DNA from: Candidatus Omnitrophota bacterium
GTDB taxonomy: Bacteria; Omnitrophota; Gorgyraeia; Gygaellales; Profunditerraquicolaceae
Length of the DNA: 64,000 bases
Direction of reading: 5' to 3'
NCBI GenBank assembly: GCA_030650425.1
Contig: JAUSED010000008.1
Location: 68,554 to 132,553, forward strand
Shown in pieces: positions 21,583 through 62,041 of the stretch. Made by a program: the position numbers and the translations under genes. The notes under the pieces were generated by a model. That model saw nothing but the letters and a program-made list of their open reading frames with translations. It was not told where the DNA came from and ran no database searches. Numbering within the stretch: position 1 is the first letter of the stretch; each line of letters opens with the position of its first letter.

Positions 21583-21591
21583 GGAGGTTTG

Positions 21592-22101: not shown

Positions 22102-22147
22102 ACTTTTAAAAGACTAGGGGAAACAGAGTAAATAAAAAGGAAAAAAG

Positions 22148-37479: not shown

Positions 37480-38367
37480 ATGACCGATAGATTAGTTCTT
37501 GGCACTGTTCAATTGGGCATGCCATATGGTATTAGCAATAAAACTGGAAAGCCGGATTTTAATAGTGCATGCGATATGATTAAAACGGCTTTTGATCAAG
37601 ATATTGCATGTTTTGATACCGCCCAGGCTTACGGGGATAGCGAAGAGGTTTTGGGAAGAGTCTTTGCTAAACTTAAGGTAGGCGCGCAGGTAAAGGTTTA
37701 TAGTAAATTGCATCCGCGGCTTGATTTGCATGACGAAGACGCCGTTAGGCAATCAGTTGAGGATTCTTTGCGCAAGCTTAATATGGACCAGCTTGAAGGT
37801 TTGTTGTTGCATGGCGAAGATGGGATACGATTTTGGGATGAAGGGTTGGGCAATGTGTTGAGGGGATTGGTTATCCGGGGGAAAGTGAAGTTGATCGGTG
37901 TTTCGTTTTATACTCCAGAAAAAGCCCTTGATGCTTTGGATGTTGACGGAATCGACATGATACAGGTGCCAGCCAATATATTTGACCGTCGGTTTGAGGA
38001 TGCCGGTGTCTTTAGAAAGGCTCAAGAGCGCGGTAAAGAAGTTTTTATACGTAGCGTGTTTCTTCAGGGCCTTCTTCTGATGGAACCGGAGGCTATCCCT
38101 GAGAAGGTGTGGCTGGCAAGAAGAGCGGTGGCTGAGTTCGCAAAGCTTGCTTCTGTGTGGCGGTTAGATCGTAAAGAGCTGGCCTTAAGATATGTGTTGA
38201 GCAAATGGCGGTATGCGCGGGTAGTCGTTGGAGCAGAAACTGCGCAGCAGGTGGCAGAAAACGTCAAGATCGCTATTCAAGATTTACCCCAGGAATGCAT
38301 GCATCAAATTGATAAGGCATTTAAAAGAGTAGAGCAGAAAATTATTAACCCCGCTGAATGGGCGTAA
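37480..38367 (+). CDS. aldo/keto reductase
   Basis: LVLGTVQLGMPYG; DTAQAYGDSEEVLG. Confidence 0.7.
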   Translation: MTDRLVLGTVQLGMPYGISNKTGKPDFNSACDMIKTAFDQDIACFDTAQAYGDSEEVLGRVFAKLKVGAQVKVYSKLHPRLDLHDEDAVRQSVEDSLRKLNMDQLEGLLLHGEDGIRFWDEGLGNVLRGLVIRGKVKLIGVSFYTPEKALDALDVDGIDMIQVPANIFDRRFEDAGVFRKAQERGKEVFIRSVFLQGLLLMEPEAIPEKVWLARRAVAEFAKLASVWRLDRKELALRYVLSKWRYARVVVGAETAQQVAENVKIAIQDLPQECMHQIDKAFKRVEQKIINPAEWA

Positions 38368-38391: not shown

Positions 38392-39771
38392 ATGAAAGAG
38401 AAGGTTGTTTTATTTTATCCGAGTTTCACAGGCAGCGGTAAATATCATTGGGCGCCATTCCCCTATATTTATTTAGGGCCTTTCTTGGAGAAGGAGGGGT
38501 TTGAAGTCCGGGTGATTGACGCCCGCGTGGATTCGCAATGGAGAATCGTTCTTAAGCGCGCCTTGGACGGTGCCCTTTGCCTAGGGGTTACCTCAATGAC
38601 TGGGCCGGATTATAATGATGCCGTCGAGGCTACGCGTATTGCCAAGGCGATAGATTCTTGGTTCCCTGTGATCTGGGGAGGCCCCCAGGCAACGGATCAG
38701 ACCAGCCTTATCGCGGATATTGCCAGCGTCGATGTAGTGGTCAGGGGGCAGGGAGAGATTGTTTTACGGGAATTTGTTCAGAGGCTTGCTGCGGGCAAGC
38801 CGTATAATGACCTGAAGGGGATTGTGTATAAACACGGGGGAGTTGTTTACGAAAATAAGCCGGCCGAACCGATCCCGTTTGATTATGATATTTTTGAAGG
38901 TTGGCATCTTTTGGATATTGAAAAATACCGTTCCCCGAACAATATTGTTGCTATTTTTACAGCCAGAGGTTGCCCGTTCTCCTGCACTTTTTGCACTACC
39001 GGGGCAAAATCATATTCTGAGCGCAGCTTTGAACAGGTTCAAAGACAGGTTCTATATGTTGTTAATGACCTTAAGTTTGACAACATTTTCATTCAGGATG
39101 GGACTTATTTTTTTAATAAGGACAGGGTTCTAAAAATAGCTCGTTGGTTTGTTGACGTTAACCTGAATATTAAGTGGAAGGCCAAGGCGCGTGCGAATAC
39201 GTTGTTCATCTATTCTGATGAAGAAATGCGCCTATTGAAGAAGTCAGGCCTTGTTTCGATATTCTTTGGAATGGAGTCAGGCTCTGATAAGGTATTGAAG
39301 AATATGAATAAGAATATTAAATCACAAGACGCGGAAAGAAGCGCTAAGATTTGCCGCAGCCATGGCATAGAATTTTATGCATCGTATATGTTCGCTACGC
39401 CTTATGAAACAGTTGAAGACCTTAAAGCTACGATTGAGAGTATGAGACGCATTAAGCAAGTTAATCCAGATGCAGTCATCCAAAATTGTATTTATCTGCC
39501 GCTTCCGGGGACGCCGATGTATGAGCAGGCGCGAGCCTGCGGGTTTGTCCCTCACCTGACTATTGAGGAATGGGGGAACCGGAAGGTAGCGACACACTTT
39601 GATTCAAAAGATTTGGTTACTTGGATTCCCGAAGATATCCTACAGGAGTATATCAAGGTTTATTCACAGGAATTCACGGGTTATAAAAATCTGTGGGAGC
39701 GTGAACTCGATGGTTCATATAAATCGGTATTTAATTCGCCTTCTGGCTCAGAAATGGAGGCTGAAGGTTAA
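38392..39771 (+). CDS. cobalamin-binding (class B) radical SAM protein
   Basis: VVLFYPSF...; ARGCPFSCTFC. Confidence 0.7.
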   Translation: MKEKVVLFYPSFTGSGKYHWAPFPYIYLGPFLEKEGFEVRVIDARVDSQWRIVLKRALDGALCLGVTSMTGPDYNDAVEATRIAKAIDSWFPVIWGGPQATDQTSLIADIASVDVVVRGQGEIVLREFVQRLAAGKPYNDLKGIVYKHGGVVYENKPAEPIPFDYDIFEGWHLLDIEKYRSPNNIVAIFTARGCPFSCTFCTTGAKSYSERSFEQVQRQVLYVVNDLKFDNIFIQDGTYFFNKDRVLKIARWFVDVNLNIKWKAKARANTLFIYSDEEMRLLKKSGLVSIFFGMESGSDKVLKNMNKNIKSQDAERSAKICRSHGIEFYASYMFATPYETVEDLKATIESMRRIKQVNPDAVIQNCIYLPLPGTPMYEQARACGFVPHLTIEEWGNRKVATHFDSKDLVTWIPEDILQEYIKVYSQEFTGYKNLWERELDGSYKSVFNSPSGSEMEAEG

Positions 39772-40326: not shown

Positions 40327-41055
40327 GTGAAGCCGTTAACTGTAGCGATTATTCAGGCGCGTAATGGTTCAACGCGCCTTCCTGGCAAGGTAATGCGCTG
40401 TGTGAATGAGCGCCCGATGGTTATCTGGGTTGTGGACCGTGTTCGAGCAGCTACTTTAGTTGATGAAGTGGTTGTGGCGACAACAGTTGATGCGCAAGAT
40501 GACGCTATGGCCGAGATGCTTTCTGATTCCGGAGTTAGGGTTCTGCGTGGTTCGACGCATGATGTTCTGGATCGGTATTATGTTGCGGCCCGCCAGGTTA
40601 GCGTAGAGAATATTGTTCGGATCACCGCGGATTGCCCTTTGATTGACGCGAGGGTCATCGACGATGTGGTGGGTCTTTTTTTAAAAAGCGGATCTGATTA
40701 TACATGCAATATCATGTCCAGGACTTATCCCGATGGGCAGGATGTGGAGGTTTTTTCTTTCGGTTCTCTGGAGCGGGCCTGGCAAGAAGCTAAAACACCA
40801 AGAGAGCGCGAGCATGTGACGATTTATTTCAGAGAGCATCCGGAGTTCTTTAAGATATCAAATTTGAAGTATGAGCATGAGTGGGGGCATATGCGTTGGA
40901 CGCTTGATTATGCGGAAGATTTTGCTATGATTGAAGAGGTCTTTAGGGCCTTTAAAGGCAGGGAATTAGAAGTTTCTATGGAGGAAATCGCGGCGTTTCT
41001 GCAGAAGAATCCGCAGGTCTGTGCTTTAAACCGTAAATATGCGGTGCAGGGTTGA
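40327..41055 (+). CDS. SpsF/NeuA-family cytidylyltransferase (candidate CMP-nonulosonate synthetase)
   Basis: AIIQARNGSTRLPGKV. 242 aa. GTG start. Confidence 0.6.
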   Translation: MKPLTVAIIQARNGSTRLPGKVMRCVNERPMVIWVVDRVRAATLVDEVVVATTVDAQDDAMAEMLSDSGVRVLRGSTHDVLDRYYVAARQVSVENIVRITADCPLIDARVIDDVVGLFLKSGSDYTCNIMSRTYPDGQDVEVFSFGSLERAWQEAKTPREREHVTIYFREHPEFFKISNLKYEHEWGHMRWTLDYAEDFAMIEEVFRAFKGRELEVSMEEIAAFLQKNPQVCALNRKYAVQG

Positions 41056-42047
41056 TGAAAGTTGCTATTTTGACTGAGGGCGGGAGAGCAAGAGGGCTTG
41101 GGCACGTGGTTCGTTGCCTTTCTTTACGGTTTGCTTTTTTGGAGTCTGGAGCGGAATGCGAGATGTTCATTGATGGGGACGATGCCTTGGGCAGCGTTAT
41201 GTCCGGCGCGCCTTGGCGTTGCTTGCATTGGGTAAGTGACGCGGAGATAATACGCGCTGTTGTTGGCGCCGCGGACATAGTTGTCATTGATTCCTATCTT
41301 GCTGCCCAGAATGTTTATGATGTAGTAGCGGAGAGTAAAAAATTAGCGATGTTTTTTGATGATACGCGCCGGCTGTTATATCCTTGCGGGTATGTGGTTA
41401 ACGCAAGTGCCGAATCTACAGGAACCGGATATCCGCCGCGGCAGGGTGTCAAATATTGCTTGGGGCCAGATTACATTTGTTTACGTCGTGAATTCTGGGA
41501 TCTTACTCCTTTCTTAGTTAGGCCGGATATTAAAAGGGTTTTCTTATCTTTTGGTGCGGTTGACAGTAAGAATATTCTTGGTCGCGTTTTAGGCGCATGC
41601 GTGAGCGCGCGCCCTGATTTGACATATCTGGCTGTGGTTGGGCCGGCGACCAGGAAAGGTCTTTCGTTATTGGAGGCCTACGAAAATGTTCAGTCAGTAG
41701 AATTTCTAAGAGATGTTTCGGTTAATAGGCTTATTAGCGCGATGCAAAGCGTTGATGTTGCGGTGAGTTCTTGCGGGCAGACTATTTATGAACTGGCTAA
41801 AACAGGTGTGCCATCTGTAACGGTGAGAGCCCATGAAAATCAGTACCTGACTTGGCAGATGATGGTAAGTTCAGGCGCTGTATGTGATGGCGGGGCTGTC
41901 AATGAAACACTGGAAGGCAGAGTGTTAGCAGCTCTGCAGGCAATGCAGGCCCCATCACTTAGGCAAGTCTGTCAAGATTCAGGTTGCCGCTTAGTAGACG
42001 GCCAAGGCGCTCGCCGTATCGTGAGCATACTTTTAAAAGGGAAGTAA
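41055..42047 (+). CDS. pseG: UDP-2,4-diacetamido-2,4,6-trideoxy-beta-L-altropyranose hydrolase (PseG/SpsG-like)
   Basis: KVAILTEGGRARGLGHVVRCLSL, the PseG-type N-terminal motif. GT28-like C-terminal half. Confidence 0.65.
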   Translation: MKVAILTEGGRARGLGHVVRCLSLRFAFLESGAECEMFIDGDDALGSVMSGAPWRCLHWVSDAEIIRAVVGAADIVVIDSYLAAQNVYDVVAESKKLAMFFDDTRRLLYPCGYVVNASAESTGTGYPPRQGVKYCLGPDYICLRREFWDLTPFLVRPDIKRVFLSFGAVDSKNILGRVLGACVSARPDLTYLAVVGPATRKGLSLLEAYENVQSVEFLRDVSVNRLISAMQSVDVAVSSCGQTIYELAKTGVPSVTVRAHENQYLTWQMMVSSGAVCDGGAVNETLEGRVLAALQAMQAPSLRQVCQDSGCRLVDGQGARRIVSILLKGK

Positions 42048-42048: not shown

Positions 42049-43083
42049 ATGGAGCAAGGACCTTTCATTACGATTAACGGGCATCAGGTCGGGCCAGATT
42101 TTCCCGTCTATATCATCGCGGAAATAGGAATCAACCATAACGGTTGTCTTTCGACGGCGCTTGAGATGGTGCGTGTTGCCAAATCGGCAGGGGCGGATGC
42201 TGTTAAAGTTCAGATTCTTACCGCGGATCGTTGTTACAGCCGGAATAGCCCTTCTTATGCTATTTTTAAGAAAGCGGAGCTAACACATGACGATTGGCGT
42301 CTTGTGTTTAAAGAGGCTCAGTTGATCGGAATTGATTGTTTTGCGACATTCGTTGATGTCGCGGACCTGAAGGATTTTTCTGATCTCGTTAAGCCTGCAG
42401 TGAAGATTTCATCCAGCTGTATCACAAATATGCCTTTGTTGGAATATGTGGCAAAGTTAGGTGTGCCGGTCTTGGTCTCTAGCGGAATGAGCGATTTGGA
42501 GGAGGTACGGGAGGCGGTGCGGGTGTTACGCGCGGGCGGACAAAAGGATATCGCGCTTTTTCATTGTACATCGCTTTATCCTGCTCCTATTGAGGCATTG
42601 AATTTACGGGCGATCAGAACCATTGCTAGTGAATTTTCGGATATTCCTGTGGGATATTCTGATCATTCCGCAGGGATAATGGCCTCTGTTCTGTCGGTCG
42701 CGCTTGGTAGCGTTTTGGTCGAGAAACATTTTACTTTGAATAAACAGATGGAAGGCCCTGACCATCATTTTTCAGCTGATCCACAAGAGATGATTGAATT
42801 AGTGACAGCAATTCGTTCGGCTGCGGCAGCATTGGGCCGTGCAGAGAAGGCGCCTGATTCCCAAGAGGTTGCTGCGCGTGGCCACTTGCGCAGGACCATT
42901 GTCGCTTTGCGGGATATTTCAGCTGGAGAGGCCCTTACGCCAGAAAATACGGGATTGAAAAGGTGTGGCTCTATAGGGCTGGCGCCCGGAGAATTAGCAA
43001 ATGTTCTTGGGCGTGTTTTACGCTCTTCTATCAAAAGGGATGACCCGATCACTGAGCGTTTATTCTTGGAGAGTAGTGTATGA
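42049..43083 (+). CDS. pseI: N-acetylneuraminate-synthase-family enzyme (pseudaminic acid synthase PseI-like)
   Basis: YIIAEIGINHNG; TIM-barrel plus C-terminal SAF domain. 344 aa. Confidence 0.75.
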   Translation: MEQGPFITINGHQVGPDFPVYIIAEIGINHNGCLSTALEMVRVAKSAGADAVKVQILTADRCYSRNSPSYAIFKKAELTHDDWRLVFKEAQLIGIDCFATFVDVADLKDFSDLVKPAVKISSSCITNMPLLEYVAKLGVPVLVSSGMSDLEEVREAVRVLRAGGQKDIALFHCTSLYPAPIEALNLRAIRTIASEFSDIPVGYSDHSAGIMASVLSVALGSVLVEKHFTLNKQMEGPDHHFSADPQEMIELVTAIRSAAAALGRAEKAPDSQEVAARGHLRRTIVALRDISAGEALTPENTGLKRCGSIGLAPGELANVLGRVLRSSIKRDDPITERLFLESSV

Positions 43084-44090
43084 AAAAGAAGGTGCTGCTT
43101 ACTTCTTTCGGGGGCGTGTGGTCACTGGCTTTTTATGAGGATTTTTTGAAACGCGGAGATTACCGGGTTTTTTTTGCAGACGTTGATTCGCGCGCCCGCG
43201 CGCGATGTTTTGTGAAGGATTTTTTAACCCTTTTATCTCCCGGTGATCCGCATTACGTTGATGACCTCTTTGCTATTTGCCGCCGTAACGATATTCGATT
43301 TGTTATTCCCGGGGCAGACGAAGAGGCATTAAGGCTTATGCCGGAGCGCGCTCGTTTTGAACGTGCTGGCATTCTTCTGGCTGTTCAAGATATGGAGACG
43401 GCTTTGTGTTTTTCGTCTAAGTCAAGGATGTACGATTTTCTGCGGAAAAAGGGATTTCCTGTGCCATTCTATAAACGTTTCAAGACGAAACAGGGGTTTG
43501 AAGATGCTCTCTTGTCAGCAGAATATCCTGCGCGGCCTCTATTAATAAAGCCTGATAACGGACGAGGGGGCCGGGGGGTAATTTTGTTGTCGCAGCGGGC
43601 ATTTCCAAATAAAGATCAGTTGCAAATAATGGATAGTGCAGCGTTTCGTCAAATGATTGATGATGAACAGGAATATATACTCATGGATTACTTTGAGGCG
43701 GATACGTATGATATGGATGTATTGACTTACGAAGACGGCAGCGTATTTTTTGGGCTGCGTAAAAGATTTGCCAATGTATCTAAGGTTTTTATGGGTAATA
43801 TATTTGAAAGGCATGAACGGATTGAGGAGCTCTGCCGGAAACTTTATAACGTGTTACCGACACGCTACCTTATTGATTACGATATCATTGTTCCTGAGGG
43901 CCGGGAGCCTTTTTTGATGGAAGTCAATCCTAGGCCTAGCGGTAGCACGATATCCTATCTTCCTTTTGGGTATAATTTATATCATATTTTAATGCAGACA
44001 TACTTAGATAAAAAAAAGACAGTGCCGGATGGGTCGTATATCGGTAGGACAGCGCATGCGTTCCATCGTGTTTTGAAGGATGCGAGGTAA
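43080..44090 (+). CDS. ATP-grasp domain protein
   Basis: ATP-grasp layout; LIKPDNGRGGRGV; EVNPRPSGS. Confidence 0.55.
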   Translation: MKKKVLLTSFGGVWSLAFYEDFLKRGDYRVFFADVDSRARARCFVKDFLTLLSPGDPHYVDDLFAICRRNDIRFVIPGADEEALRLMPERARFERAGILLAVQDMETALCFSSKSRMYDFLRKKGFPVPFYKRFKTKQGFEDALLSAEYPARPLLIKPDNGRGGRGVILLSQRAFPNKDQLQIMDSAAFRQMIDDEQEYILMDYFEADTYDMDVLTYEDGSVFFGLRKRFANVSKVFMGNIFERHERIEELCRKLYNVLPTRYLIDYDIIVPEGREPFLMEVNPRPSGSTISYLPFGYNLYHILMQTYLDKKKTVPDGSYIGRTAHAFHRVLKDAR

Positions 44091-44096
44091 GTAAGT

Positions 44097-44837
44097 ATGG
44101 CTGAACAAATTCTGATTGTAGCAGCTCATCCGGATGATGAAGTGATAGGTTGCGGGGGAGCGATCGCTTGGCATTCCGCACGTGGAGATTATGTTCGGAT
44201 GATAATTATGGCGGATGGCGTAACATCAAGAAGCTACAATCCCGATATTCCGGTGCCTCGCGCAGAGGAGTTGTTGGTTTATCAGCAGGCTATTGAGCGT
44301 CGTAAAACCGAGTGCCGGGACGCGGCATCCCTTCTCGGCGTCAAGAAAAACGCTGTTTATTTCTTAGATCTGGCGGATCAACGTTTGGATACATATCCGT
44401 TTCTTGATTTGGTAAAACATATCGAGAAGGTCAAGGGGATTTTTTCTCCGACGCTGGTTTACACACATTTTTTCGGCGATCTTAATTTGGACCATCGTTT
44501 GACTGCTCAGGCTGTGTTGACCGCGTTCCGTCCGCGATTAGGAACTACTGCGGCAGTGAAGCTTTTTGAGGTCTATGAGACAACAAGAATTTCTAATCAG
44601 GCAGGTTATGGTGATTTTGTTCCGGATTATTTATTGGATATTTCGCCGTTTTGGGAGCTTAAGCAGAAGGCTCTTAGTGTTTATGTGAGTGAGAGTTGCA
44701 AGTATCCTCATTTCCGTTCTGTCCAGGCCTTGAGGGAACGGGCTGCTTTTTGGGGGGAGCGATCCGGCGTAAAATATGGAGAGGCTTTTTTGACCCGTTA
44801 CGCAGCTAGTGAGGAAATAGCTTATGGGAAAAGGTAA
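44097..44837 (+). CDS. PIG-L/LmbE-family N-deacetylase
   Basis: ILIVAAHPDDEVIGCGG signature. Confidence 0.8.
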   Translation: MAEQILIVAAHPDDEVIGCGGAIAWHSARGDYVRMIIMADGVTSRSYNPDIPVPRAEELLVYQQAIERRKTECRDAASLLGVKKNAVYFLDLADQRLDTYPFLDLVKHIEKVKGIFSPTLVYTHFFGDLNLDHRLTAQAVLTAFRPRLGTTAAVKLFEVYETTRISNQAGYGDFVPDYLLDISPFWELKQKALSVYVSESCKYPHFRSVQALRERAAFWGERSGVKYGEAFLTRYAASEEIAYGKR

Positions 44838-45327
44838 GGTGTCTTTAACAGGCGCGATAGGAGGCGGTGTACGTTTAAGGCCGGCTCGGGAAAGTGACGC
44901 GGAGTTTCTTTTTAAGCTGCGTAACGATCCTGAGGTTAGGCGCAGCGCCTTTAATGAGAAGCCCCTTGTATGGGAGGAGCATTTAAGTTGGATGGCAAAT
45001 AAATTGGCATCGCATAAGACAACCATCTTCATTGCCGAAGTGGAGGGGCAGCCTGCGGGCCAGGTGCGTTTCGATCTCGAAGAAGAGGGGGCGGTTGTGG
45101 ATATTACTTTAGCGCAACATCTGCGTGGTCGCGGGCTCGGGACGATTCTTCTGGAGCAAGGGGTCGGTCATTTTATTACGATGATGCCGGGAGTTAGTAT
45201 TGTGGCTTATGTGAAGAAAGAAAACACCCCGTCGTTGAGATGCTTTAAGAAGGCGGGATTCAGGGATGAGGGGGCTGTTATTATTCAGGGAACATCTTGT
45301 CACCGGATGCTTTTTTTATCTGATTAA
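44824..45327 (+). CDS. GNAT-family N-acyltransferase
   Basis: GNAT motif A LRGRGLGTILLE. 167 aa. Overlaps the deacetylase stop. Confidence 0.65.
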   Translation: MGKGKVSLTGAIGGGVRLRPARESDAEFLFKLRNDPEVRRSAFNEKPLVWEEHLSWMANKLASHKTTIFIAEVEGQPAGQVRFDLEEEGAVVDITLAQHLRGRGLGTILLEQGVGHFITMMPGVSIVAYVKKENTPSLRCFKKAGFRDEGAVIIQGTSCHRMLFLSD

Positions 45328-45363
45328 ACGGTTTTATTTAGTTGTAATAGGTTGGTGTCAAAA

Positions 45364-47031
45364 ATGAAAAAAAAGAATATTTTATTCGTCCATCTTCCTT
45401 CTTTGTCTGTTAAGTACATTGTTGAATCAATGAAGACGAAGAGTACTCAGGAGGTAAACTTAAGTTTTCCGCTGGGAATCTTGTATCTTTCATCGTATTT
45501 AAGAGCCAGCTGCGGTGCGGTCGGACGGGTAGCCATGCTTGATTATCCGTTGTATGTAAGGCAGGGCATCTCGAAGTATGAGTCGATTGAGGATTTTATC
45601 CTGAAAGAAGCGCAAAAACATATCGATTTTAAACCGGACATTATTGCATTTTCTCTTATGTTTTCTGCTTCCCATCAATTTTTCAAAATAGCAGCGCAAA
45701 CATTGAAATCGCTCTATCCTAATTCGATAAGCGTTGTTGGGGGAATCCACGCGACAAATATTTCTGATTTTCTACTTGATCAGAATTGTGCGGATTACGT
45801 GATCCGCGGCGAAGGAGAAGAAGCTTTTTCAAAAATGGTGGAATTATTAGCGCAGAACTTGCCTATAGACCTGGAAGGCGTTTACTCAAAAGCCAGCCAT
45901 AGCCTGCCTGTGCGGGATAAGATGACAGGATTTATTCAGGATCTGGACTCCTTGCCTTTCCCTGATTGGTCATTGTTGGAAATGGACAATTATTTGCTTT
46001 CAGACCAGAGGCGGTATACTGATAAAATTCTAGATAAACGCATGGCCACACTCATAACAACTCGTGGTTGTCCTTATAGGTGCAGTTTTTGTTCGGCGCA
46101 TACGGTCCATGGCAGGGTGATGAGATATCGTTCCATAGAGGATATTATAGAGGAGATAAAAACCCTGTATGAGCGTTATGGCGTGAATATTTTTGTGCCC
46201 TTCGATGATCTCTTTACCGCGAAAAAAGAACGGGCTTTATCGCTGTTGAGAAACATAAAAGCTCTTAATATCCCTCGTATGGAGGTGCAGTTCCCCAACG
46301 CACTGCACGTGAATACTTTGGATAACGACATTTTGGATTTGATGATTGAATGCGGAGTTAAGGTATTTAATCTGGCCATTGAGACGGGCACAGAGTACAT
46401 GCAGAAGAAGATTAATAAGCATTGCGATCTCAATAAAGCGCGAATGATTATCGATTATTGCCGAAAAAAAGGGATGATGGTCCGCTGCAATTTCATTCTT
46501 GGTTTTCCCGGGGAAACCAAGGAAATGATGAGCGAAAGCACGCGGTATATGAAAACTATCAGGCCGGATTGGTATAATTTATATATGGCCACACCCCTCA
46601 TCGGCACAGAGATGTATGATCAATTCGTGGAAAAAGGATATATCGTAGATTGTGAGGATACCTGGAATCAGGCTTTGGTTCAGAACCGAGCTTTTGACAC
46701 AGACGAAATTTCAGCAGTTGATTTGAAACGTTTTATTGACCGAACAAATATCGAGTTGAATTTTTTAAATAATAACAATTATCTGGAAGGAAAGTTTGAT
46801 CGGGCAACTTTATTATTTTATGATATTGTTAAACATTACCCGTTTCAAATATTCTCTTATTACGGGTTGTATCTTTCGTACAGAGGAAAAAAAGATTATG
46901 CGGGCGCAGACGGTTTCTTGAAGAAGATGGAAGATGTTATTGTCTCGGATCACCGCGCGGCCGAACTTTATAATAAGTACAATGATTTATTCCCCGAAAA
47001 CATTATAAACAGAATTGGGAGGTTCGTATGA
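45364..47031 (+). CDS. cobalamin-binding (class B) radical SAM protein
   Basis: ILFVHLPS...; TTRGCPYRCSFC. About 555 aa. Confidence 0.7.
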   Translation: MKKKNILFVHLPSLSVKYIVESMKTKSTQEVNLSFPLGILYLSSYLRASCGAVGRVAMLDYPLYVRQGISKYESIEDFILKEAQKHIDFKPDIIAFSLMFSASHQFFKIAAQTLKSLYPNSISVVGGIHATNISDFLLDQNCADYVIRGEGEEAFSKMVELLAQNLPIDLEGVYSKASHSLPVRDKMTGFIQDLDSLPFPDWSLLEMDNYLLSDQRRYTDKILDKRMATLITTRGCPYRCSFCSAHTVHGRVMRYRSIEDIIEEIKTLYERYGVNIFVPFDDLFTAKKERALSLLRNIKALNIPRMEVQFPNALHVNTLDNDILDLMIECGVKVFNLAIETGTEYMQKKINKHCDLNKARMIIDYCRKKGMMVRCNFILGFPGETKEMMSESTRYMKTIRPDWYNLYMATPLIGTEMYDQFVEKGYIVDCEDTWNQALVQNRAFDTDEISAVDLKRFIDRTNIELNFLNNNNYLEGKFDRATLLFYDIVKHYPFQIFSYYGLYLSYRGKKDYAGADGFLKKMEDVIVSDHRAAELYNKYNDLFPENIINRIGRFV

Positions 47032-48119
47032 AAACATCTGGGTTTACGGAGAAACTATACGGTGGATTCCAATTTAAATATTCGATTGATAGCCTTCCGC
47101 TACCGGATGGGTTCATCCGTTATCACCAGGATAATTTCTCTAGATATTTTCTATTACCCAAAGAAGAATTTAAGGGCAAGGCTATACTGGAGACTGGCTG
47201 CGGGCCGGGAAAGCACGCTGTGGCGTTGGCATTGCTGGGCGCACAGGTTACAGCAGTGGATCTGTCGGATGACAATGTTGAGAGAGGCAGGAGATTAATA
47301 GAATATTACAAATTCTCGAATCTTAACTTCTTAAAGCATGATCTCATGCAGCCTCTTTTACTGGAAGCTAATTTTGATCTGATAAGCATTCATAATTGGA
47401 TTCAGCATTCGTTAAATCCGGGGCTTGTCTTGAAGAACTTGACGGCTTTGCTAAAGCCGGGAGGAAGATGCTATATCAGTTGCTATCATGCTAATACATT
47501 CAGATTTTTCATCACCCAGATCGCGCGCTCATTGCTTATTCCCGGAGATTTTGAACAAATGCAGCAATTGGTTATGTTCGTTTTCCCCAGCGGATTCCGG
47601 GGATTTTCCAACCCCGATGATATATATTTTGAGAATATCTTTGATGATTTTCTTGTGCCGTATTGCCATACAACGACATATCCGATGCTTCTGTCCGTTA
47701 TGCAGGGGCTGGGGTACAGGGCTATTACGCAGGCCCCCGAGATAGGGGAGATATACGGCTACGATAATATTGCTTTGCGCATGGGCTTTGAGAAACAGGG
47801 CAATGTTAAGGTTAGTGATAAGGTGGCTTTTGATTGTTCAGTTGACGAATTTGACCGCGGATGCCCGGATATAGTTAAAGAGTCTATAAAATTGGCTGAA
47901 GAGGTCATCGCTTCTGTGAAGAAAGAAGGCGACCGAGAAAAAATCATGTTTTTTTGCTTAGGACTCTATCGGTTGAGAGCCGAAACTTGCGCAGAGAATA
48001 ATATGGGGCTAAAACACGGCTTGTTGCAGCAATACTTGAATATGGTGCTTTCAGGTAACATTAAGGCACACTCTGTTTTTTACGAAATGAAAGATTTTTA
48101 TGCAACCCCACAAGGATAA
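47028..48119 (+). CDS. class I SAM-dependent methyltransferase
   Basis: ILETGCGPGKHAVALA...VDLSDDNV...LKPGG. Confidence 0.7.
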   Translation: MKTSGFTEKLYGGFQFKYSIDSLPLPDGFIRYHQDNFSRYFLLPKEEFKGKAILETGCGPGKHAVALALLGAQVTAVDLSDDNVERGRRLIEYYKFSNLNFLKHDLMQPLLLEANFDLISIHNWIQHSLNPGLVLKNLTALLKPGGRCYISCYHANTFRFFITQIARSLLIPGDFEQMQQLVMFVFPSGFRGFSNPDDIYFENIFDDFLVPYCHTTTYPMLLSVMQGLGYRAITQAPEIGEIYGYDNIALRMGFEKQGNVKVSDKVAFDCSVDEFDRGCPDIVKESIKLAEEVIASVKKEGDREKIMFFCLGLYRLRAETCAENNMGLKHGLLQQYLNMVLSGNIKAHSVFYEMKDFYATPQG

Positions 48120-48122
48120 CTT

Positions 48123-50060
48123 ATGTGCGGTATAGCGGCAATCTTTAGCCTTGATGGAACTCCGGTTAAGGATGCGCGGTTAAGGGCCGAACGGATGAAA
48201 AAATTGCTTTATCATCGCGGTCCGGATAGCTGCGGTGTTTATGTTTCTCCTGACGGCGCCTGCGCCCTTGCGGTAACGCGCTTGGCTATAGTTGAACCCG
48301 GAAATACCCTTTCTCAGCCGTTGGCTACGGCCGACGGCAAGTGCGTGCTGGCGTTTAACGGGGAAATATATAACTATCTTGAAATGCGGCAATATCTGCA
48401 GTCGCGCGGGGTGCGCCTGCGGACCAAAATGGATACCGAGATTTTGCTTGAAGGGCTGCGTTTGGAAGGAGAGTCTTTCCTTGAGCGGCTTGACGGGATG
48501 TGGGCATTTGCTTTTTATAATGCGGCGGACAGGTCGCTTCTCTTAAGCCGCGATGTGCTGGGAGAGCGGCATCTGTTTTATCGTGTGGAGGGCAATGAAC
48601 TTATCTTTGCTTCCGAAGTAAAACCATTGCTTGCGGACTCATCGTTAACATTCAAGCTTGATTTTGAAAGCTTTTTGACTTCGTTGCAATATTTTGCTCC
48701 AGCTCCCGGCAAAACCATGGTGCGGGGTATCGAAAGGCTGCGGCCAGGTTATAATATTCAACTTAAGCAGAATGTTCCACCGAGGTTTTATTTACATCGC
48801 AAGCTGCATCCTGAGAAGTGGTTTGGCTTTTTTGATAAGGAGCCTTCTTTTCAAGAGGTTACCTCTCGTTTTGAAGACCTTTTTTTATCAGTTTGCAAGC
48901 GGCGTTTCCCGCGAGAGGTCCCGTTTATGTCCACATTAAGCGGCGGGATTGATAGCACGGCGATATGTATATTTCTCAGTGAATATGGAAAAGTGCCTGT
49001 TCGGACTCTTTTTGGAGAAGGGCCGCGTAAGCAGAATTATGCATCTGGAGAAATGACCGAATATGAGGCCAGCCTTTTTACTTCTCGTAAACTAGGGACT
49101 TCTCATAGTTATATAAATTTTGATTGTTCTGAATATGTGGATGTCTTAATCCATCTTGCGGGTAACGCTTTTGACGGGATTTATGATAACGGTACGGCAA
49201 TGTATGAGATGTTAGCGCGGCATGCCCATAAGAACGGCGCCAAGGTGCTGCTTTTTGCCGAAGGCCCAGACGAGTTTTTGGGTTATCCGAAAGATCTTCG
49301 CGCGTACACAGCAGATAGGCTTTATCATCGCAACAAGATTTTTTTTAAGATTATGCATTTTTTGTCGTCTCATACATCAGGCCGGCGTTTGCTAGAGAAA
49401 ACTGGATTTGCTCAGGCTATTATCCCAAACGGAATTTCGTATAAGCCTTTCCGGTTTTCTCCTATTAATAAAAGCTGGGGGCGCGCGGATATGCTTAAGC
49501 TTGTGAGCCATTCTCAATTTAATCTGGTCCGGGATCATTATGGCGTGGCAGCGCCTCAATATGATGATATCAGGCATAGGCTTGACTTTGCACAAATGCG
49601 AGCGTTGTCATACGCGGCTTTTAGCCTGCCTGATATGTATAATTTGAGAATAGATAAAGGGAATATGAATACCTCCGTAGAGGCGCGTCTTCCTTACCAG
49701 GCGCCGGAAATGGTGGAGTTTTTAGTAGCGCTTCCTTCTGTTTATCGGTTTGGCAAGGGGGTGACGACAAAATATATTCTTCGCGAGGTTGTTCGTAAGC
49801 ATATTGGTCCAGAGATCGCGTACCGTAAAAAAAGGGGGTTTGCTTTACCTCTTTGGGATCTTCCTCATATTTATAAAGCAATGGGTTATGATGAGATTTT
49901 ACGCGCTACTCCGGTATTTGAAGAATATTCATTTTCTAAGGGATTGAGGGAATTTATCTTGCGCGAAGAAAATAAGAGTTTTGTCTGGCCGTTCTATGCC
50001 TTGGCCAGGGTTCATGAACAGCTGGAAAAAAAATTGTACCTTAAGAATATTGATGGCTAA
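48123..50060 (+). CDS. asparagine-synthase-family glutamine amidotransferase (AsnB-like)
   Basis: MCGIAAIF (N-terminal Cys nucleophile); SGGIDST PP-loop. 645 aa. Confidence 0.85.
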   Translation: MCGIAAIFSLDGTPVKDARLRAERMKKLLYHRGPDSCGVYVSPDGACALAVTRLAIVEPGNTLSQPLATADGKCVLAFNGEIYNYLEMRQYLQSRGVRLRTKMDTEILLEGLRLEGESFLERLDGMWAFAFYNAADRSLLLSRDVLGERHLFYRVEGNELIFASEVKPLLADSSLTFKLDFESFLTSLQYFAPAPGKTMVRGIERLRPGYNIQLKQNVPPRFYLHRKLHPEKWFGFFDKEPSFQEVTSRFEDLFLSVCKRRFPREVPFMSTLSGGIDSTAICIFLSEYGKVPVRTLFGEGPRKQNYASGEMTEYEASLFTSRKLGTSHSYINFDCSEYVDVLIHLAGNAFDGIYDNGTAMYEMLARHAHKNGAKVLLFAEGPDEFLGYPKDLRAYTADRLYHRNKIFFKIMHFLSSHTSGRRLLEKTGFAQAIIPNGISYKPFRFSPINKSWGRADMLKLVSHSQFNLVRDHYGVAAPQYDDIRHRLDFAQMRALSYAAFSLPDMYNLRIDKGNMNTSVEARLPYQAPEMVEFLVALPSVYRFGKGVTTKYILREVVRKHIGPEIAYRKKRGFALPLWDLPHIYKAMGYDEILRATPVFEEYSFSKGLREFILREENKSFVWPFYALARVHEQLEKKLYLKNIDG

Positions 50061-52008
50061 AGCGGGATTTTCTATGTTAGAGCGGCGTATCATTATCTTT
50101 GAACGTTGTTATGGTTGGGCGTTTTGGTTTTTAATTTGGAATATCATACTGGGGCGGCGGGCCTACGTGGTAGATCCGTATTGGGCATATCATCATGTTC
50201 GAACGCCTATTCGGGGTTTTCCACATTCTTTGCCCGCATTTGTTAAAATAATGGTTAAGACCGGCTGGGTTAAGGTTTTAACCGTTGAAGAGTTGGGATG
50301 CCGCAGACATATTATTGAGGCGACGGAGCAAGCTGTGCGTTATTGTGAAAAGGCCGGAGATGTTTTTCAGGCCGAAGTCCGCAATAAAGATTTTTTAAGT
50401 TTCTATAAGGCTATTTTGGGCGATGCGGTGGTTGAGCGAACGATTAAGAAATCGGTGTGTAATGCCTTGGCTGAGTTTTTGTCTGTAAGGCTTTTGTTGA
50501 AGGCGCTTAGGAAGTGTTTTGGATCAAAAGAGTTTATGTTTATTCCGGCTTATAATGCGAGGCAGTATTTATTTTTTGAAAAGATATGGCCTAAATTGGA
50601 GCCTGATCATCCGGAGGCCGCGTTTAGATTCTCTCGGTTGACTTTGTGGTTTGATACCGTAGCATTTGGTTTTATTTTGTGTATGGATATCGGACGAGGT
50701 TTGGTCAAAGCGTTCATATTGTTCGCAAACAGGATCTGCCGGCGCGGACTTGTTCCGAGAGATGCCGTATGCGGCGTTTCTTTAGTTTCACTTGCCCGGC
50801 AGATAGGCGATGCCCAGAAATCTCTTAGCTTTCTTGTTGATGGCGCGCTGATCCGCCGAGAGGATACGATTATTTTCAATTACGCGAAGTGCGGCCCTCG
50901 AAAGAAGGCGTTTTTGTCCCGGAAGTTCCCAAACATTGTGCATATGCAAGACGCGGGCATAAGCTGGAGTGATTTTTTAACCTGCTTGAATGGCGCGCGT
51001 TCGGCGTTAAGAGGTTTTTCTTTAGGTGTGGGGATTGTTTATAAGGATTTGTCTTTGGTAATGGAGAATTATTTTGTCTGGAAGCAGATCGGAGAACGCA
51101 TTAGGCTTAGAAACTTTGTGACCCATTGCGACTTTGGCGCTTCGCAACTCGGGCGTAATTTGGCTTTGCGTGAGAAAGGCGTGAGGACATGGTTGTTTAT
51201 GGATTCTGCTAATCAGTCCTGTAATTTTATGACTGACAACAATGTTATGGGCGCGCAGCATCCTTTTTGGTGCTATCTGGACTATGATCATTTTGTTGCC
51301 TGGACCCCTTTTTTAGCGCAGTATTTTGCTTCGCATCCGGGTAGCGCCAAGCAGTTTCACGTAACCGGATGTTTTTGGGCAGACTATATTCAACCAAGGC
51401 GCGATGCCTTTAAGGCGCTCTCCATGGGATTACAAGAGCGGCTAAAGAGAAAGAAGGTTGTGGCGGCCTTTGACTCGACCTATTCAAGAAAAGGGATGAC
51501 TTCTTATCAGGAGGGGATTGCTTTTGCGCGGCATATTCTTGCGTTAGCTGATCTGAGCGATGATCTGCTTATCTTGTGGAGAGAGAAAATTACGCGTAAG
51601 TTACATTATAAGCTGGACGATATGAGCGCGGATGAACTTTTGGCTGTGTATGCAAAAATGGATGCGCATCCTCGGATTATTAACGTAACCAGAACATTAA
51701 CCGCAGGGGATATGATTGCTGTTTCCGACCTTGTTATTTCTTTTCCGTTCACATCTACCAGTCTGGAGGCGTTAAGCGCCCATAGAAGAGCGATTTGGCA
51801 TGATCCGTTAGCTTTTTATCGCAGGAATATTTATGATGATCGGCTGGTTACGCATGGCTGGAATGAGCTTCAAGATTTAGTTGTTCGGTTACTGCGGGGA
51901 GAGGAGCTGTCATTTGGGGAGGCCGAATCGAAGGTTAGGGATCCTTATTCTGACGGCCATGCGACGAATCGGTTTAGGAGATTATTATTGCAGTCGGAGC
52001 GTGATTAA
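50053..52008 (+). CDS. large hypothetical protein with GT-B-like C-terminal block (candidate glycosyl/glycerophospho-transferase or polymerase)
   Basis: No N-terminal match; C-terminal LTAGDMIAVSDLVISFPFTSTSLEALSAHRRAIWHD resembles the TagF/GT-B donor-binding region. Start at ATG 50053 overlapping the asnB stop. Confidence 0.35.
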   Translation: MAKAGFSMLERRIIIFERCYGWAFWFLIWNIILGRRAYVVDPYWAYHHVRTPIRGFPHSLPAFVKIMVKTGWVKVLTVEELGCRRHIIEATEQAVRYCEKAGDVFQAEVRNKDFLSFYKAILGDAVVERTIKKSVCNALAEFLSVRLLLKALRKCFGSKEFMFIPAYNARQYLFFEKIWPKLEPDHPEAAFRFSRLTLWFDTVAFGFILCMDIGRGLVKAFILFANRICRRGLVPRDAVCGVSLVSLARQIGDAQKSLSFLVDGALIRREDTIIFNYAKCGPRKKAFLSRKFPNIVHMQDAGISWSDFLTCLNGARSALRGFSLGVGIVYKDLSLVMENYFVWKQIGERIRLRNFVTHCDFGASQLGRNLALREKGVRTWLFMDSANQSCNFMTDNNVMGAQHPFWCYLDYDHFVAWTPFLAQYFASHPGSAKQFHVTGCFWADYIQPRRDAFKALSMGLQERLKRKKVVAAFDSTYSRKGMTSYQEGIAFARHILALADLSDDLLILWREKITRKLHYKLDDMSADELLAVYAKMDAHPRIINVTRTLTAGDMIAVSDLVISFPFTSTSLEALSAHRRAIWHDPLAFYRRNIYDDRLVTHGWNELQDLVVRLLRGEELSFGEAESKVRDPYSDGHATNRFRRLLLQSERD

Positions 52009-52021
52009 ACAGAATTATCTT

Positions 52022-53872
52022 ATGAAAAGAGTTGTAATAGCAAAGAATATTGACAAAAATACATTAAAGATGATTAGGGATCATCTTCCCGGGGGTAACG
52101 ATGAAAGGATCTATCTGGTATTTGGTAATCCAGATATTCATAACCTACATTCTTTAGAGGCATTGGGCTTTAAAGAGCAGTGCTTGCCTGCGCATGATGA
52201 ACAATACCGGGATAACTTTTTACGTGAATATATTGATCTTATAGGCAGCATAGGCAAAGAAAATAATATTCTTGAGTGGTGGGCAACGGATATAGCTTCT
52301 AAAAATCGTTTTACTTCCAGGATAACGGAGTTGTTATCTCATTTTTTAGACATTGTACAGACAGCCAAGGATAAGCCATTCGGGATTATGGTAGTGGTAA
52401 ATCCGGATTGGGCAATCGTTTCTTCTCTAAAGAAAGCCTGCCTAAAAGATGGCATTGGTTTTATTGCAGGTAATGGTTTTGCAGTGGAAAAAATTTTCAG
52501 TTTTACAGCTTTAAGGTTAAGAAGCCTGGCCTCTGTTATACGTAATTTTGGGAAGATAGGCATTAGATCTATCTATTGCCGTTTTATACTAGGGAAGAAG
52601 ACGCAATCCTCTGTGAAGGATAGCGGGCCATATTATGTGGTTAAGACATTCATCTACAACAGTTCTTTTTCCGAAGGGCATGATTATAAAGATAGCTTTT
52701 TCGGAAAACTACCGTATATATTAAGCAAAAACAGAAAAGTGCTCATTTTTGCTTCCGTACTCGGAAGCTATCGTTACTGTCTGCAAGAGATAAAAAAATG
52801 TAATTCGTTTAGGATTATTCCCGTAGAATATTTTATTACCTTTTTGGATTTAATTTCAGCTTTCAAGGCATTTATCTTGTCTAGGGTGGTTATAAGCGAT
52901 AAATATATGCTTAGCTGTGAAGTAGCGGGTATAATACGAAATGAGTTGGAGCGGACATGGAATGGAATACAGTATTACCAACTGTTCCATTACTGGGCTT
53001 TAAAGCGGCTGCTAAGCGGGGTAAGGGTGGATACCTTTCTTTTGACTTATGAGAATAATCCGTGGGAGAAGATGTGCATAGCCGCGTTAAGGCAGATATC
53101 GCCGGACACTTTTATCATAGGCTATCAACATACAATTGTTTCTCAGGCTTCGGCGAATATGTTCCCCAGCCGTTATGAAAATGGCATTATGCCTTTTCCT
53201 GATAAGATAGTGACGGTTGGCGAGGCCACTAAGAATATTATGCAGCGATACGGGAATTTTGGGGATGTTTCAATCCGCGCTTCATGCGGCCTCAGGTTTG
53301 AGTATCTTTTCGATCTAGGCCGGCTTGAGAGGAAAAATAATGGGAATATTCTGCTTGCGCTTGAAGGCATAAAAGATGCGCATAAACTAGTGGCTTATGT
53401 TCTCAGAGAGCTGGGAGGAAAAAGTAAGTACAACGTTAGAATCAGGACTCATCCCGCGCTTCCCTGGCAATATTTTCAGAGTAGGTGTAGATTTGACCTG
53501 GCGAAATACTCCAATTTTCATCTTTCGCCTGGAGGATTAGTAAGGGCCGACATGGAGTGGGCAGATACAGTTATATACTGGGGAAGCACTATCGCTGTTG
53601 AAGCGCTTAACCTTGGCAGGCCCGTAGTTCACTATAACACAGGCTCTATCTTAAATTATGACCCTTTATTTGAATCCTCCGATTTTAAATGGGTAGTAAA
53701 CGAAAATGTCAGTTTGACCGTTATCCTTGAAAAGATAAATAGTCTGGATGATCAGGAGTTTACTTCTGGCTGGAAAAAGGCAAAAACATATTTGGACGAC
53801 TATTTCCATCCGATCACCGAAGAAAATATGAAAGAATTTATAAAAGATGCCTCGTCAATTGGGGCAAAGTGA
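52022..53872 (+). CDS. large hypothetical protein with GT-B-like C-terminal block (second candidate transferase)
   Basis: ADMEWADTVIYWGSTIAVEALNLGRPVVHYNTG, a GT-B-type block. ATG 52022 chosen after the upstream stop. Confidence 0.35.
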   Translation: MKRVVIAKNIDKNTLKMIRDHLPGGNDERIYLVFGNPDIHNLHSLEALGFKEQCLPAHDEQYRDNFLREYIDLIGSIGKENNILEWWATDIASKNRFTSRITELLSHFLDIVQTAKDKPFGIMVVVNPDWAIVSSLKKACLKDGIGFIAGNGFAVEKIFSFTALRLRSLASVIRNFGKIGIRSIYCRFILGKKTQSSVKDSGPYYVVKTFIYNSSFSEGHDYKDSFFGKLPYILSKNRKVLIFASVLGSYRYCLQEIKKCNSFRIIPVEYFITFLDLISAFKAFILSRVVISDKYMLSCEVAGIIRNELERTWNGIQYYQLFHYWALKRLLSGVRVDTFLLTYENNPWEKMCIAALRQISPDTFIIGYQHTIVSQASANMFPSRYENGIMPFPDKIVTVGEATKNIMQRYGNFGDVSIRASCGLRFEYLFDLGRLERKNNGNILLALEGIKDAHKLVAYVLRELGGKSKYNVRIRTHPALPWQYFQSRCRFDLAKYSNFHLSPGGLVRADMEWADTVIYWGSTIAVEALNLGRPVVHYNTGSILNYDPLFESSDFKWVVNENVSLTVILEKINSLDDQEFTSGWKKAKTYLDDYFHPITEENMKEFIKDASSIGAK

Positions 53873-56584: not shown

Positions 56585-56596
56585 GGAGTTGAATAA

Positions 56597-57283: not shown

Positions 57284-57297
57284 AAAAGGGGATTAAG

Positions 57298-58086: not shown

Positions 58087-58089
58087 AAA

Positions 58090-58743: not shown

Positions 58744-58753
58744 GAGGTACGAA

Positions 58754-59533: not shown

Positions 59534-59540
59534 TTTACTT

Positions 59541-60305: not shown

Positions 60306-60319
60306 TTAAAGAGGAGAAT

Positions 60320-62013: not shown

Positions 62014-62041
62014 ATTTCAAGCAGTATATTTTAAACTAAGC

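Follow-up and report, generated by a model that had tools for sequence, protein, structure and literature searches.

Six putative nonulosonate-tailoring genes beside a pseudaminic-acid-type gene set in an Omnitrophota bacterium

Nonulosonic acids (NulO) with N-substituents other than acetyl, such as glyceroyl, hydroxybutyryl, N-acetyl-alanyl and N-methyl-glutamyl groups, are found in many bacteria, and the enzymes that install these substituents are mostly unknown. Here we describe six genes at positions 43080-50060 of a 64,000-nucleotide stretch of DNA from Candidatus Omnitrophota bacterium (contig JAUSED010000008.1 of assembly GCA_030650425.1), which is called the window below. They lie directly 3' of a gene set for a NulO of the pseudaminic acid (Pse) type, and an ATP-grasp ligase, a PIG-L deacetylase and an AsnB-family amidotransferase are among their products. 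We lean towards a role of these genes in replacing an N-acetyl group of this NulO by another acyl residue. Several described systems share parts of its enzymes or of its chemistry.

The flagellin of Clostridium botulinum carries 7-acetamido-5-(N-methyl-glutam-4-yl)-legionaminic acid, likewise a 5,7-diamino nonulosonate. The N5 acetyl group of this sugar, which comes from the GlcNAc precursor, is replaced by a carboxyl-linked amino acid that is then N-methylated. Such chemistry needs a deacetylase, a ligase and a methyltransferase, the same set as in the window. From related strains, ions are known that are lighter by 1 Da and heavier by a further 14 Da; such masses would fit an amidated form and a further methylated form. 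However, the backbone is legionaminic and the genes lie in a Gram-positive flagellar island; the likeness is one of chemistry. In Shewanella oneidensis, the sfmABCDE operon combines a PseI-like gene, an S-adenosylmethionine (SAM) methyltransferase and an ATP-grasp carboxylate-amine ligase, as here. Its glycan contains a mono-N-acetyl nonulosonate with a further methylated acid moiety, and the mass shift is smaller when the ligase gene is lost than when the others are. SfmE is annotated as ATP-grasp_4 with 412 aa, unlike the family in the window, and neither PIG-L nor AsnB is reported for sfm. The sfm target is flagellin, whereas no flagellar genes were seen in the window.

A comparable logic is known from the NAGGN pathway, in which a GNAT and an ATP-grasp enzyme (fused in Ngg) build an N-acetylated, amide-linked product and the AsnB-type enzyme AsnO caps the carboxylate. 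The pathway proposed below uses these three enzyme types and caps its product in the same way, and a fusion of ATP-grasp with a GNAT2-like domain also exists among the relatives of the ATP-grasp protein of the window. However, the AsnB homologue of the window is under the cutoff of the AsnO-type model (TIGR03104, 182.6 bits versus 570.1) and is not a member of that family, and the NAGGN product is a free dipeptide osmolyte.

The legionaminic-type cluster of Candidatus Kuenenia stuttgartiensis has a deacetylase among its nonulosonate genes, as here, and the SugarBase preprint reports CMP-nonulosonates with one free amine and a formyl group; re-acylation there is by a formyltransferase and not by an ATP-grasp enzyme. 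In Tannerella forsythia, which makes Pse5Am7Gra, a 605-aa AsnB homologue lies beside pseBCFHGI and was proposed to act on Pse, but ATP-grasp and PIG-L are not reported and a uronamide could be the real target of the AsnB homologue (PMC6120980). The gene for the 7-glyceroyl group of the same sugar was explicitly called elusive (PMC6120980). Vibrio vulnificus makes Leg5Ac7AcAla, an N-acetyl-alanyl legionaminic acid. A search of the literature library used returned no paper joining LmbE/PIG-L with nonulosonic acids and a single one joining ATP-grasp with them, and a 2026 paper on Clostridium Pse mentions none of the tailoring enzymes of the window.

Gene order and linkage to NeuB

In the list of open reading frames (ORFs), the window is a single long glycan-biosynthesis island on the plus strand. 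Its ATP-grasp protein is 100% identical to P0001, a protein from a Candidatus Omnitrophota MAG. Genes were called from this list and from Pfam and NCBIfam scans of the translations. The six genes of the interval, all on the plus strand, start with an ATP-grasp carboxylate-amine ligase of 336 aa (43080-44090; Pfam ATP-grasp_3, ATPgrasp_Ter and PylC-like_N), followed by a metal-dependent de-N-acetylase of the PIG-L/LmbE type with 246 aa (44097-44837; Pfam PIG-L) and by a second GNAT N-acyltransferase of 167 aa, GNAT2 (44824-45327; Pfam Acetyltransf_3 and Acetyltransf_1). Next come a B12-binding radical SAM enzyme of 559 aa (45352-47031, with a likely start ATG at 45364; Pfam B12-binding and Radical_SAM), a class I SAM-dependent methyltransferase of 363 aa (47028-48119; Pfam Methyltransf_31/25/11) and an AsnB-family glutamine-dependent amidotransferase of 645 aa (48123-50060; GATase_7 and Asn_synthase, TIGR01536). 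A preliminary description of this DNA had named four of the six; Pfam and NCBIfam place these four where it put them and confirm their family names, while it had left the radical SAM enzyme and the methyltransferase unnamed.

The genes are tightly packed. The start of the ATP-grasp gene overlaps the NeuB stop by 4 nt, and the ATP-grasp gene is translationally coupled to NeuB. PIG-L and GNAT2 share 14 nt, the radical SAM gene runs 4 nt into the methyltransferase gene, and the remaining gaps within the interval are 3-24 nt. The signal scan found no terminator-like match between genes, every such match being inside an ORF. Promoter-like sites are no more frequent than in shuffled sequence, and the Rfam scan gave no match. 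The six genes are probably, though by no means surely, the tailoring half of one long operon, a judgment made jointly with that on the pathway proposed below.

The linkage to NeuB is not peculiar to the window. By ATP-grasp homology alone, 33 loci were retrieved from public genomes and metagenomes, with ORFs labelled by BLAST against the window proteins. A NeuB homologue lies within 10 kb in 32 of the 33 loci; 26 have it right next to the ATP-grasp gene and in the same orientation. PIG-L occurs in 22 loci, although several loci are incomplete. The loci span Omnitrophota, Parcubacteria, Prochlorococcus marinus MIT 9302, Pelagibacteraceae, Rhodospirillales, Rhizobiaceae, Myxococcota, Thermodesulfobacteriota and Gammaproteobacteria. 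As the gene set recurs in dozens of loci of unrelated phyla, the grouping is not due to chance. In the cultured Ensifer adhaerens (NER9 plasmid pA), PIG-L, NeuB and ATP-grasp are consecutive.

Two relatives illustrate how much of the set is retained. On a metagenomic contig (P0011) the order is NeuB, radical SAM, ATP-grasp, PIG-L, GNAT, radical SAM, methyltransferase and AsnB, the same as in the window from ATP-grasp to AsnB; the radical SAM gene occupies the same slot and so does the methyltransferase counterpart of 367 aa. In the closest syntenic relative (L040), where neighbors are up to 89% identical, ATP-grasp and PIG-L are directly followed by an Asn_synthase-like gene, without GNAT2, the radical SAM enzyme and the methyltransferase. 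A GNAT2-like gene is found in 7 of the 33 loci, which makes it accessory. This comparison points to the ligase and the deacetylase as the constant, core part of a widespread NeuB-linked module and to GNAT2, the radical SAM enzyme and the methyltransferase as its variable part. The preliminary description took ATP-grasp and PIG-L for tailoring genes, and their NulO role stands; they are however not a local add-on, as they belong to the core of a module that is linked to NeuB in nearly every locus.

Other neighbors of the ligase change from locus to locus. A 2-hydroxyacid dehydrogenase gene is immediately 3' of the ligase gene in 11 of the 33 loci, and also on another contig (P0018). In L041, a homocitrate/isopropylmalate-synthase-like gene lies between NeuB and ATP-grasp, and in L003 and L041 ATP-grasp occurs together with a formyltransferase. 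With the ligase and deacetylase constant and their neighbors changing, the surrounding genes look as if they provide or finish the acid that the ligase attaches. The window gene at 61090 was considered as the partner dehydrogenase of the ligase and was excluded; it is 22-31% identical to the dehydrogenases that follow ATP-grasp elsewhere.

A plasmid search gave two distant matches only, in Ensifer and in Haloarcula. In the latter (L038, plasmid of Haloarcula sp. GH36, 10047-13745), a glycosyltransferase gene and a HAD hydrolase gene flank an ATP-grasp relative with 26% identity. This archaeal glycan cluster is without NeuB, and a polysaccharide deacetylase gene adjoins the glycosyltransferase. 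The pairing of deacetylase and ligase may thus extend beyond nonulosonates.

Enzyme families and catalytic motifs

The AlphaFold2 model of the ATP-grasp protein (pLDDT 94.2, pTM 0.91) shows the three-domain ATP-grasp fold. Foldseek matches it with probability 1.00 to 2pn1, PurK, PurT, RizA, PylC and biotin carboxylase. The top match, 2pn1, is an uncharacterised structural-genomics protein; PurK, PurT, L-amino-acid ligases and PylC come after it, and identities are 12-19%. Residues Lys114, Lys157, Asp266, Glu281, Asn283 and Arg285 are invariant in 27 homologues together with the motif EVNPRPSGS, and Gly163-Arg165 are likewise among the invariant residues. By analogy, the former six would be the ATP/Mg-binding residues, including the E-x-N-x-R motif. 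The best NCBIfam match, PRK12767 'CPS-like protein', is under its cutoff (89.9 bits versus 218), and the purD and Ddl models give about 20 bits each. The protein is a carboxylate-amine ligase whose characterised relatives are all distant.

Natural fusions tie this ligase to nonulosonate synthesis. It is joined to a PseG-like domain in P0239, to a cytidylyltransferase 36% identical to that of the window in P0265, and in P0231 to a GNAT that is 37% identical to GNAT2 and has no detectable similarity to GNAT1. An exhaustive profile search places 611 clusters (50% identity, E < 1e-30) in the ATP-grasp family, none of which has an informative protein name. Public records call such proteins 'carbamoyl-phosphate synthase large subunit', and the AsnB homologues 'asparagine synthase'. 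Carriers of the family include Omnitrophota, candidate-phyla-radiation bacteria, Prochlorococcus, SAR11 relatives and rhizobia.

The deacetylase matches PF02585 with 87.6 bits against a cutoff of 28.2. Its closest sequence relatives in the PDB are diacetylchitobiose deacetylases and BshB, and it is under both equivalog cutoffs tried, with 62.8 bits versus 182.5 for BshB1 and 21 versus 224 for MshB. Among 24 homologues from NulO loci, at least 85% retain the AHPDDE motif (residues 10-15) and Asp132-His133. The preliminary description had proposed that the deacetylase and the GNAT exchange one acyl group for another. We retain the deacetylation but not the re-acylation of the sugar amine by the GNAT. 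As the fusion of ATP-grasp with a GNAT2-like domain exists, GNAT2 more likely acetylates the residue added by the ligase than the sugar amine, and it is tied to ATP-grasp at least as closely as to the deacetylase.

The radical SAM enzyme scores 56.5 bits for PF02310 and 80.6 bits for PF04055, and its Cys240-x3-Cys244-x2-Cys247 motif is present. With an N-terminal B12-binding domain ahead of the radical SAM domain, it has the architecture of class B (cobalamin-dependent) radical SAM methyltransferases. It reaches no NCBIfam equivalog. The enzyme is probably a C-methyltransferase.

The AsnB homologue retains Cys2 (Met1-Cys2-Gly3) and the PP-loop Leu272-Ser273-Gly274-Gly275-Ile276-Asp277-Ser278. 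Asp383, Arg509 and Lys570, the equivalents of Asp351, Arg387 and Lys449 of E. coli AsnB, are also retained. Identity to E. coli AsnB is 27%. On the N-terminal side of the Arg387 equivalent, the protein has an insertion that spans about 67 aligned columns and carries conserved motifs of its own. The position of E. coli Asp384 is Tyr or Phe in this paralogue and its orthologues, and the position of Ser346 is Phe, Ile or Val. E. coli Glu348 is retained in the window protein and is Asp in most orthologues, and the acidic cluster of Glu380, Asp383 and Glu384 is retained. The aspartate-binding pocket of AsnB proper includes Glu348, Asp351 and Asp384 in E. coli, which correspond to Glu364, Asp367 and Asp400 in human ASNS. 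The human residues equivalent to the acidic cluster bind the alpha-ammonium group of the substrate, and Asp367 and Asp400 help in this (PMC6748925). The E. coli-type model NF006949 gives 184.9 bits, under its cutoff of 499, while the broad TIGR01536 passes with 291.1 bits versus 267.1, explaining the public name. The orthologues, 42-58% identical, are found in nonulosonate clusters that also contain NeuB, ATP-grasp and PIG-L. The protein is thus not the asparagine synthetase proper that the preliminary description had set against its own reading. From sequence comparison, it is best regarded as a tailoring paralogue that differs from AsnB proper.

The structure model of this protein, built on an alignment of database homologues with AlphaFold2, has a pLDDT of 91. 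Its best structural match is the tailoring enzyme TsnB9, a hydroxyamidotransferase, which together with the beta-lactam and carbapenam synthetases gives the best matches, all with the same two-domain architecture. These enzymes act on larger carboxylic acids and not on aspartate, and TsnB9 amidates a large acid. However, they are only 14-20% identical to the window protein and belong to secondary-metabolite pathways, and the beta-lactam and carbapenam synthetases are without an active glutaminase whereas the window protein retains Cys2. Divergent Asn_synthase-like proteins were also observed among the relatives. The one that follows ATP-grasp and PIG-L in L040 (11801-13732) has 21% identity over a short stretch, and in L041 divergent Asn_synthase-like and homocitrate/isopropylmalate-synthase-like genes were noted in the regions 8433-9998 and 12862-14505. 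By analogy with beta-lactam synthetase, a glutaminase-less AsnB relative could form an intramolecular amide.

Proposed pathway and competing readings

From the enzyme families, the intact catalytic motifs, the operon packing, the NeuB linkage and the fusions, all of which were obtained directly, we infer substrates, positions, step order and product. On balance, we favor the reading that the operon makes a CMP-activated 5,7-diamino nonulosonate of the pseudaminic acid type which is tailored by the six genes. PIG-L would hydrolyse one N-acetyl group of the nonulosonate, of its CMP-activated form or of a hexose precursor, most likely the one at N5 that is inherited from UDP-GlcNAc. The ATP-grasp enzyme would activate a carboxylic acid as acyl phosphate and couple it to the freed amine. 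For the window, an acidic amino acid is the most likely candidate; a hydroxy acid would be more likely in those relatives that have a 2-hydroxyacid dehydrogenase or homocitrate-synthase-like gene next to the ligase. GNAT2 would then N-acetylate the amino group of the added residue, and the AsnB paralogue would adenylate its remaining carboxylate and use glutamine-derived ammonia to turn it into a carboxamide. C-methyl and N- or O-methyl groups would come from the B12 radical SAM enzyme and the SAM methyltransferase. The predicted product is an acyl-capped, methylated nonulosonate with a non-acetyl N-substituent, which downstream PFTS-motif proteins may put into a surface glycan. The preliminary description had predicted a non-standard N-acyl nonulosonic acid. 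This is a reasonable prediction. The NeuB linkage and the fusions place the genes in the nonulosonate pathway, and the interpretation of the preliminary description as a whole is partly supported.

Several observations weigh against this scheme. The ATP-grasp enzyme resembles PurT and PurK, users of formate or bicarbonate, just as much, so the acid could be very small. The acidic cluster of the AsnB paralogue is general to the family and is weak evidence for an amino-acid substrate. The Asn_synthase-like protein of L040 is very divergent and gives no match to the glutaminase domain. Mutual exclusion of an adjacent 2-hydroxyacid dehydrogenase and GNAT2, which would have pointed to separate cluster sets for a 2-hydroxy acid and an N-acetyl-2-amino acid, is not significant (11/1 versus 16/8, Fisher p = 0.22). 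Finally, PIG-L is linked to a block of cytidylyltransferase, class-III aminotransferase and aldo-keto reductase at least as tightly as to ATP-grasp, so it may serve some other step that is not understood.

A different role of the AsnB paralogue would change the product. It might make an acetamidino group, by adenylating the N-acetyl carbonyl oxygen and letting glutamine-derived ammonia displace AMP. Other PP-loop enzymes do activate amide or lactam oxygens, which counts in its favor, and the acetamidino group is a well-documented nonulosonate modification. The product would be of the Pse5Am type, much like Tannerella Pse5Am7Gra, and PIG-L and ATP-grasp would deacetylate and re-acylate its other nitrogen. 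Three loci (L006, L010 and L020) have ATP-grasp, 2-hydroxyacid dehydrogenase, PIG-L and AsnB together, which fits a glyceroyl and amidino product. There is no HisH/HisF-type domain among the Pfam-scanned ORFs (nearly all of those of at least 150 aa), the PseA/WbuX model TIGR03573 not having been run window-wide. The AsnB homologue of T. forsythia was proposed to make the 5-acetamidino group of its Pse, but the N-acetylmannosaminuronamide of the same glycan explains that homologue in the ordinary way (PMC6120980). No AsnB-family enzyme is known to form an amidine, and the residues of the synthetase site for carboxylate adenylation are retained in the window protein. We regard an acetamidino product as rather unlikely, though the strongest of the competing readings.

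It is less likely still that ATP-grasp, PIG-L, the aminotransferase, the reductase and the cytidylyltransferase are obligatory steps of a distinct nonulosonate pathway with a different backbone. This backbone might, for example, have an extra amino group or changed stereochemistry, and the acetyl group would serve only as a temporary protecting group. NeuB and these five genes do recur as a unit across phyla, and a block of cytidylyltransferase, aminotransferase, PIG-L and aldo-keto reductase recurs across loci. The class-III aminotransferase, which resembles glutamate-1-semialdehyde aminomutase, is fused to CTP_transf_3 in L003 (13534-15600), L035 (18391-20448) and L041 (1795-3873), and the fusions of ATP-grasp to PseG-like and cytidylyltransferase domains point in the same direction. 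PseG, PseI, PseF and PseH are all under equivalog cutoffs. The lipopolysaccharide (LPS) loci of Legionella pneumophila serogroup 6/12 list a similar set, unannotated and without known product, and a fusion of cytidylyltransferase and reductase is known from a Vibrio. However, PseB and PseC pass their equivalog cutoffs and the early steps look standard. No oxidase was identified for the keto or aldehyde group that further amination needs, and the amide or ester bonds formed by ATP-grasp enzymes are decoration by nature.

The tailoring genes could in principle act on another sugar of the island, such as a heptose, a 6-deoxyhexose or the product of the cytidylyltransferase cluster at 55982-62013. 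Many further sugar pathways are encoded in the window, and AsnB homologues elsewhere amidate uronic acids (PMC6120980). This is improbable, as NeuB stays linked to the set even where the other sugar genes of a locus are quite different and the ATP-grasp fusions join nonulosonate-pathway domains; the Pfam-scanned ORFs of the window also show no UDP-sugar 6-dehydrogenase domain. That ATP-grasp and AsnB serve primary metabolism, as a purine- or carbamoyl-phosphate-type ligase and as asparagine synthetase, and merely adjoin the sugar genes has the TIGR01536 match and the public names on its side, but it is scarcely credible and largely refuted by the model scores, by the low identity, insertion and lost Asp384 and Ser346 equivalents of the AsnB paralogue, by the NulO clusters in which its orthologues sit, and by an ATP-grasp protein that is distant from PurK, PurT and carbamoyl-phosphate synthetase (CPS; 12-19% identity) and is fused to PseG-like, cytidylyltransferase and GNAT domains elsewhere.

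Neighboring genes and significance

The nonulosonate genes next door, which the preliminary description had assumed, are real. NeuB/PseI-like nonulosonate synthase (42049-43083) matches Pfam NeuB with 240.7 bits and SAF; it scores 299 bits for NeuB_NnaB and 257 bits for PseI (cutoff 340.25), and is under both equivalog cutoffs. It is preceded on the same strand by a PseG-like hydrolase (41052-42047, Pfam/NCBIfam), a CTP_transf_3 cytidylyltransferase (40327-41055, Pfam) and GNAT1 (from 39771, 5' of the cytidylyltransferase gene, Pfam GNAT), for which a PseH-like role is assigned. PseG has 102 bits versus 153.55 and PseF 32.1 versus 205.7, each under its equivalog cutoff. The PseH model TIGR03585 (cutoff 93.1) gives 41.9 bits for GNAT2 and 27.0 bits for GNAT1, again both under. 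In L001, the counterparts of GNAT1, the cytidylyltransferase and the PseG-like protein are 73%, 76% and 64% identical and in the same order.

Further upstream, also on the plus strand, a gene for a 714-aa fusion (32377-34521) encodes an N-terminal half that resembles the reductase RmlD (a reductase/epimerase domain) and a C-terminal half that is a PseC equivalog (473.4 bits versus 423.5). The P0011 contig carries the same fusion with 712 aa. It is followed by a B12-binding radical SAM gene (34546-36156), a class-III aminotransferase and then an aldo-keto reductase gene (36163-38367), and a second B12 radical SAM gene (38392-39771), all from Pfam matches and on the plus strand. The PseB equivalog, an inverting UDP-GlcNAc 4,6-dehydratase (10224-11267, plus strand; TIGR03589, 472.8 bits versus cutoff 407.75), lies 22 kb upstream of the PseC fusion gene, after a MarR-type regulator gene at 9679. 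L002 repeats this order of MarR-type regulator gene and PseB. With PseB and PseC above the equivalog cutoffs, the early steps of the pathway look like standard Pse synthesis; as PseG, PseI, PseF and PseH are under theirs, we name the product a pseudaminic-acid-type 5,7-diamino nonulosonate, its configuration being unproven.

The Pse-type operon thus holds three B12-binding radical SAM genes (34546-36156, 38392-39771 and 45352-47031), and two further radical SAM genes lie upstream (14853-15920 and 18381-19463). Given these genes, C-methylation of the sugar seems likely. In L034, six B12 radical SAM genes surround NeuB. For Magnetospirillum, a 2026 preprint describes CMP-ulosonic acids that have an extended (C10) backbone and are unexplained.

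Downstream of the tailoring genes, a PFTS-motif polysaccharide protein of 675 aa is encoded on the plus strand (ORF from 49981, probable start ATG at 50053; TIGR04417, 110.8 bits versus 100). From this ATG, its gene overlaps the AsnB stop by 8 nt. A second large protein of 663 aa is encoded on the same strand within 49981-53872, ending at 53872; it is under the cutoff of TIGR04326 with 36 bits, a weak match to Leptospira-type surface carbohydrate proteins. Neither has a Pfam match in the library used. Counterparts come after the tailoring genes in L001, L034 and L040, and both proteins probably use the activated sugar.

Other parts of the island encode further sugar chemistry. The region 55982-62698 contains genes for a SIS isomerase, a transaldolase/FSA, an HpcH/HpaI pyruvate aldolase, a HAD phosphatase and two short-chain dehydrogenases/reductases (SDRs), together with a second CTP_transf_3 cytidylyltransferase, a phosphoglycerate-dehydrogenase-like 2-hydroxyacid dehydrogenase and a methyltransferase. 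It may represent a second keto-acid sugar route. In Prochlorococcus (L008), HpcH and a CMPtr2-like gene lie beside NeuB-ATP-grasp. The genes at 12258-17704 and 20386-23398 point to a heptose or to a branched, C-methylated sugar. They encode two cytidylyltransferase-like domains, of which one is fused to a PfkB kinase, as well as a SIS isomerase, a split transketolase and two TylC3-like sugar C-methyltransferases. A gene for a papain-family (C1) cysteine peptidase (6825-7559) lies amid nucleotide-sugar epimerase/dehydratase genes.

The window contains a putative nonulosonate tailoring cluster whose enzyme families had so far not been linked to such a task. It provides a candidate enzyme set for the installation of non-acetyl substituents, made up of a PIG-L deacetylase, a NeuB-adjacent ATP-grasp ligase found across phyla and an AsnB-family capping enzyme. 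It also shows that the annotations 'asparagine synthase' and 'carbamoyl-phosphate synthase large subunit' are misleading for such proteins. Cultured carriers exist in Ensifer adhaerens NER9 (plasmid pA, near 1.484 Mb) and Prochlorococcus marinus MIT 9302 (near 1.51 Mb). Substituents of this kind shape immune recognition, phage susceptibility and surface charge. We further put forward, only tentatively and as the less probable case, that NeuB-ATP-grasp-PIG-L, often with AsnB and B12 radical SAM methylases, defines a widespread uncharacterised class of nonulosonic acids, in which one acetamido group would obligatorily be exchanged by the ligase for an amino-acid or hydroxy-acid residue that would then be acetylated, amidated and C-methylated. 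If true, the module would provide the enzymes still sought for the known glyceroyl, aminoacyl and glutamyl substituents, and it might explain the extended-backbone CMP-ulosonic acids detected by mass spectrometry in Magnetospirillum.

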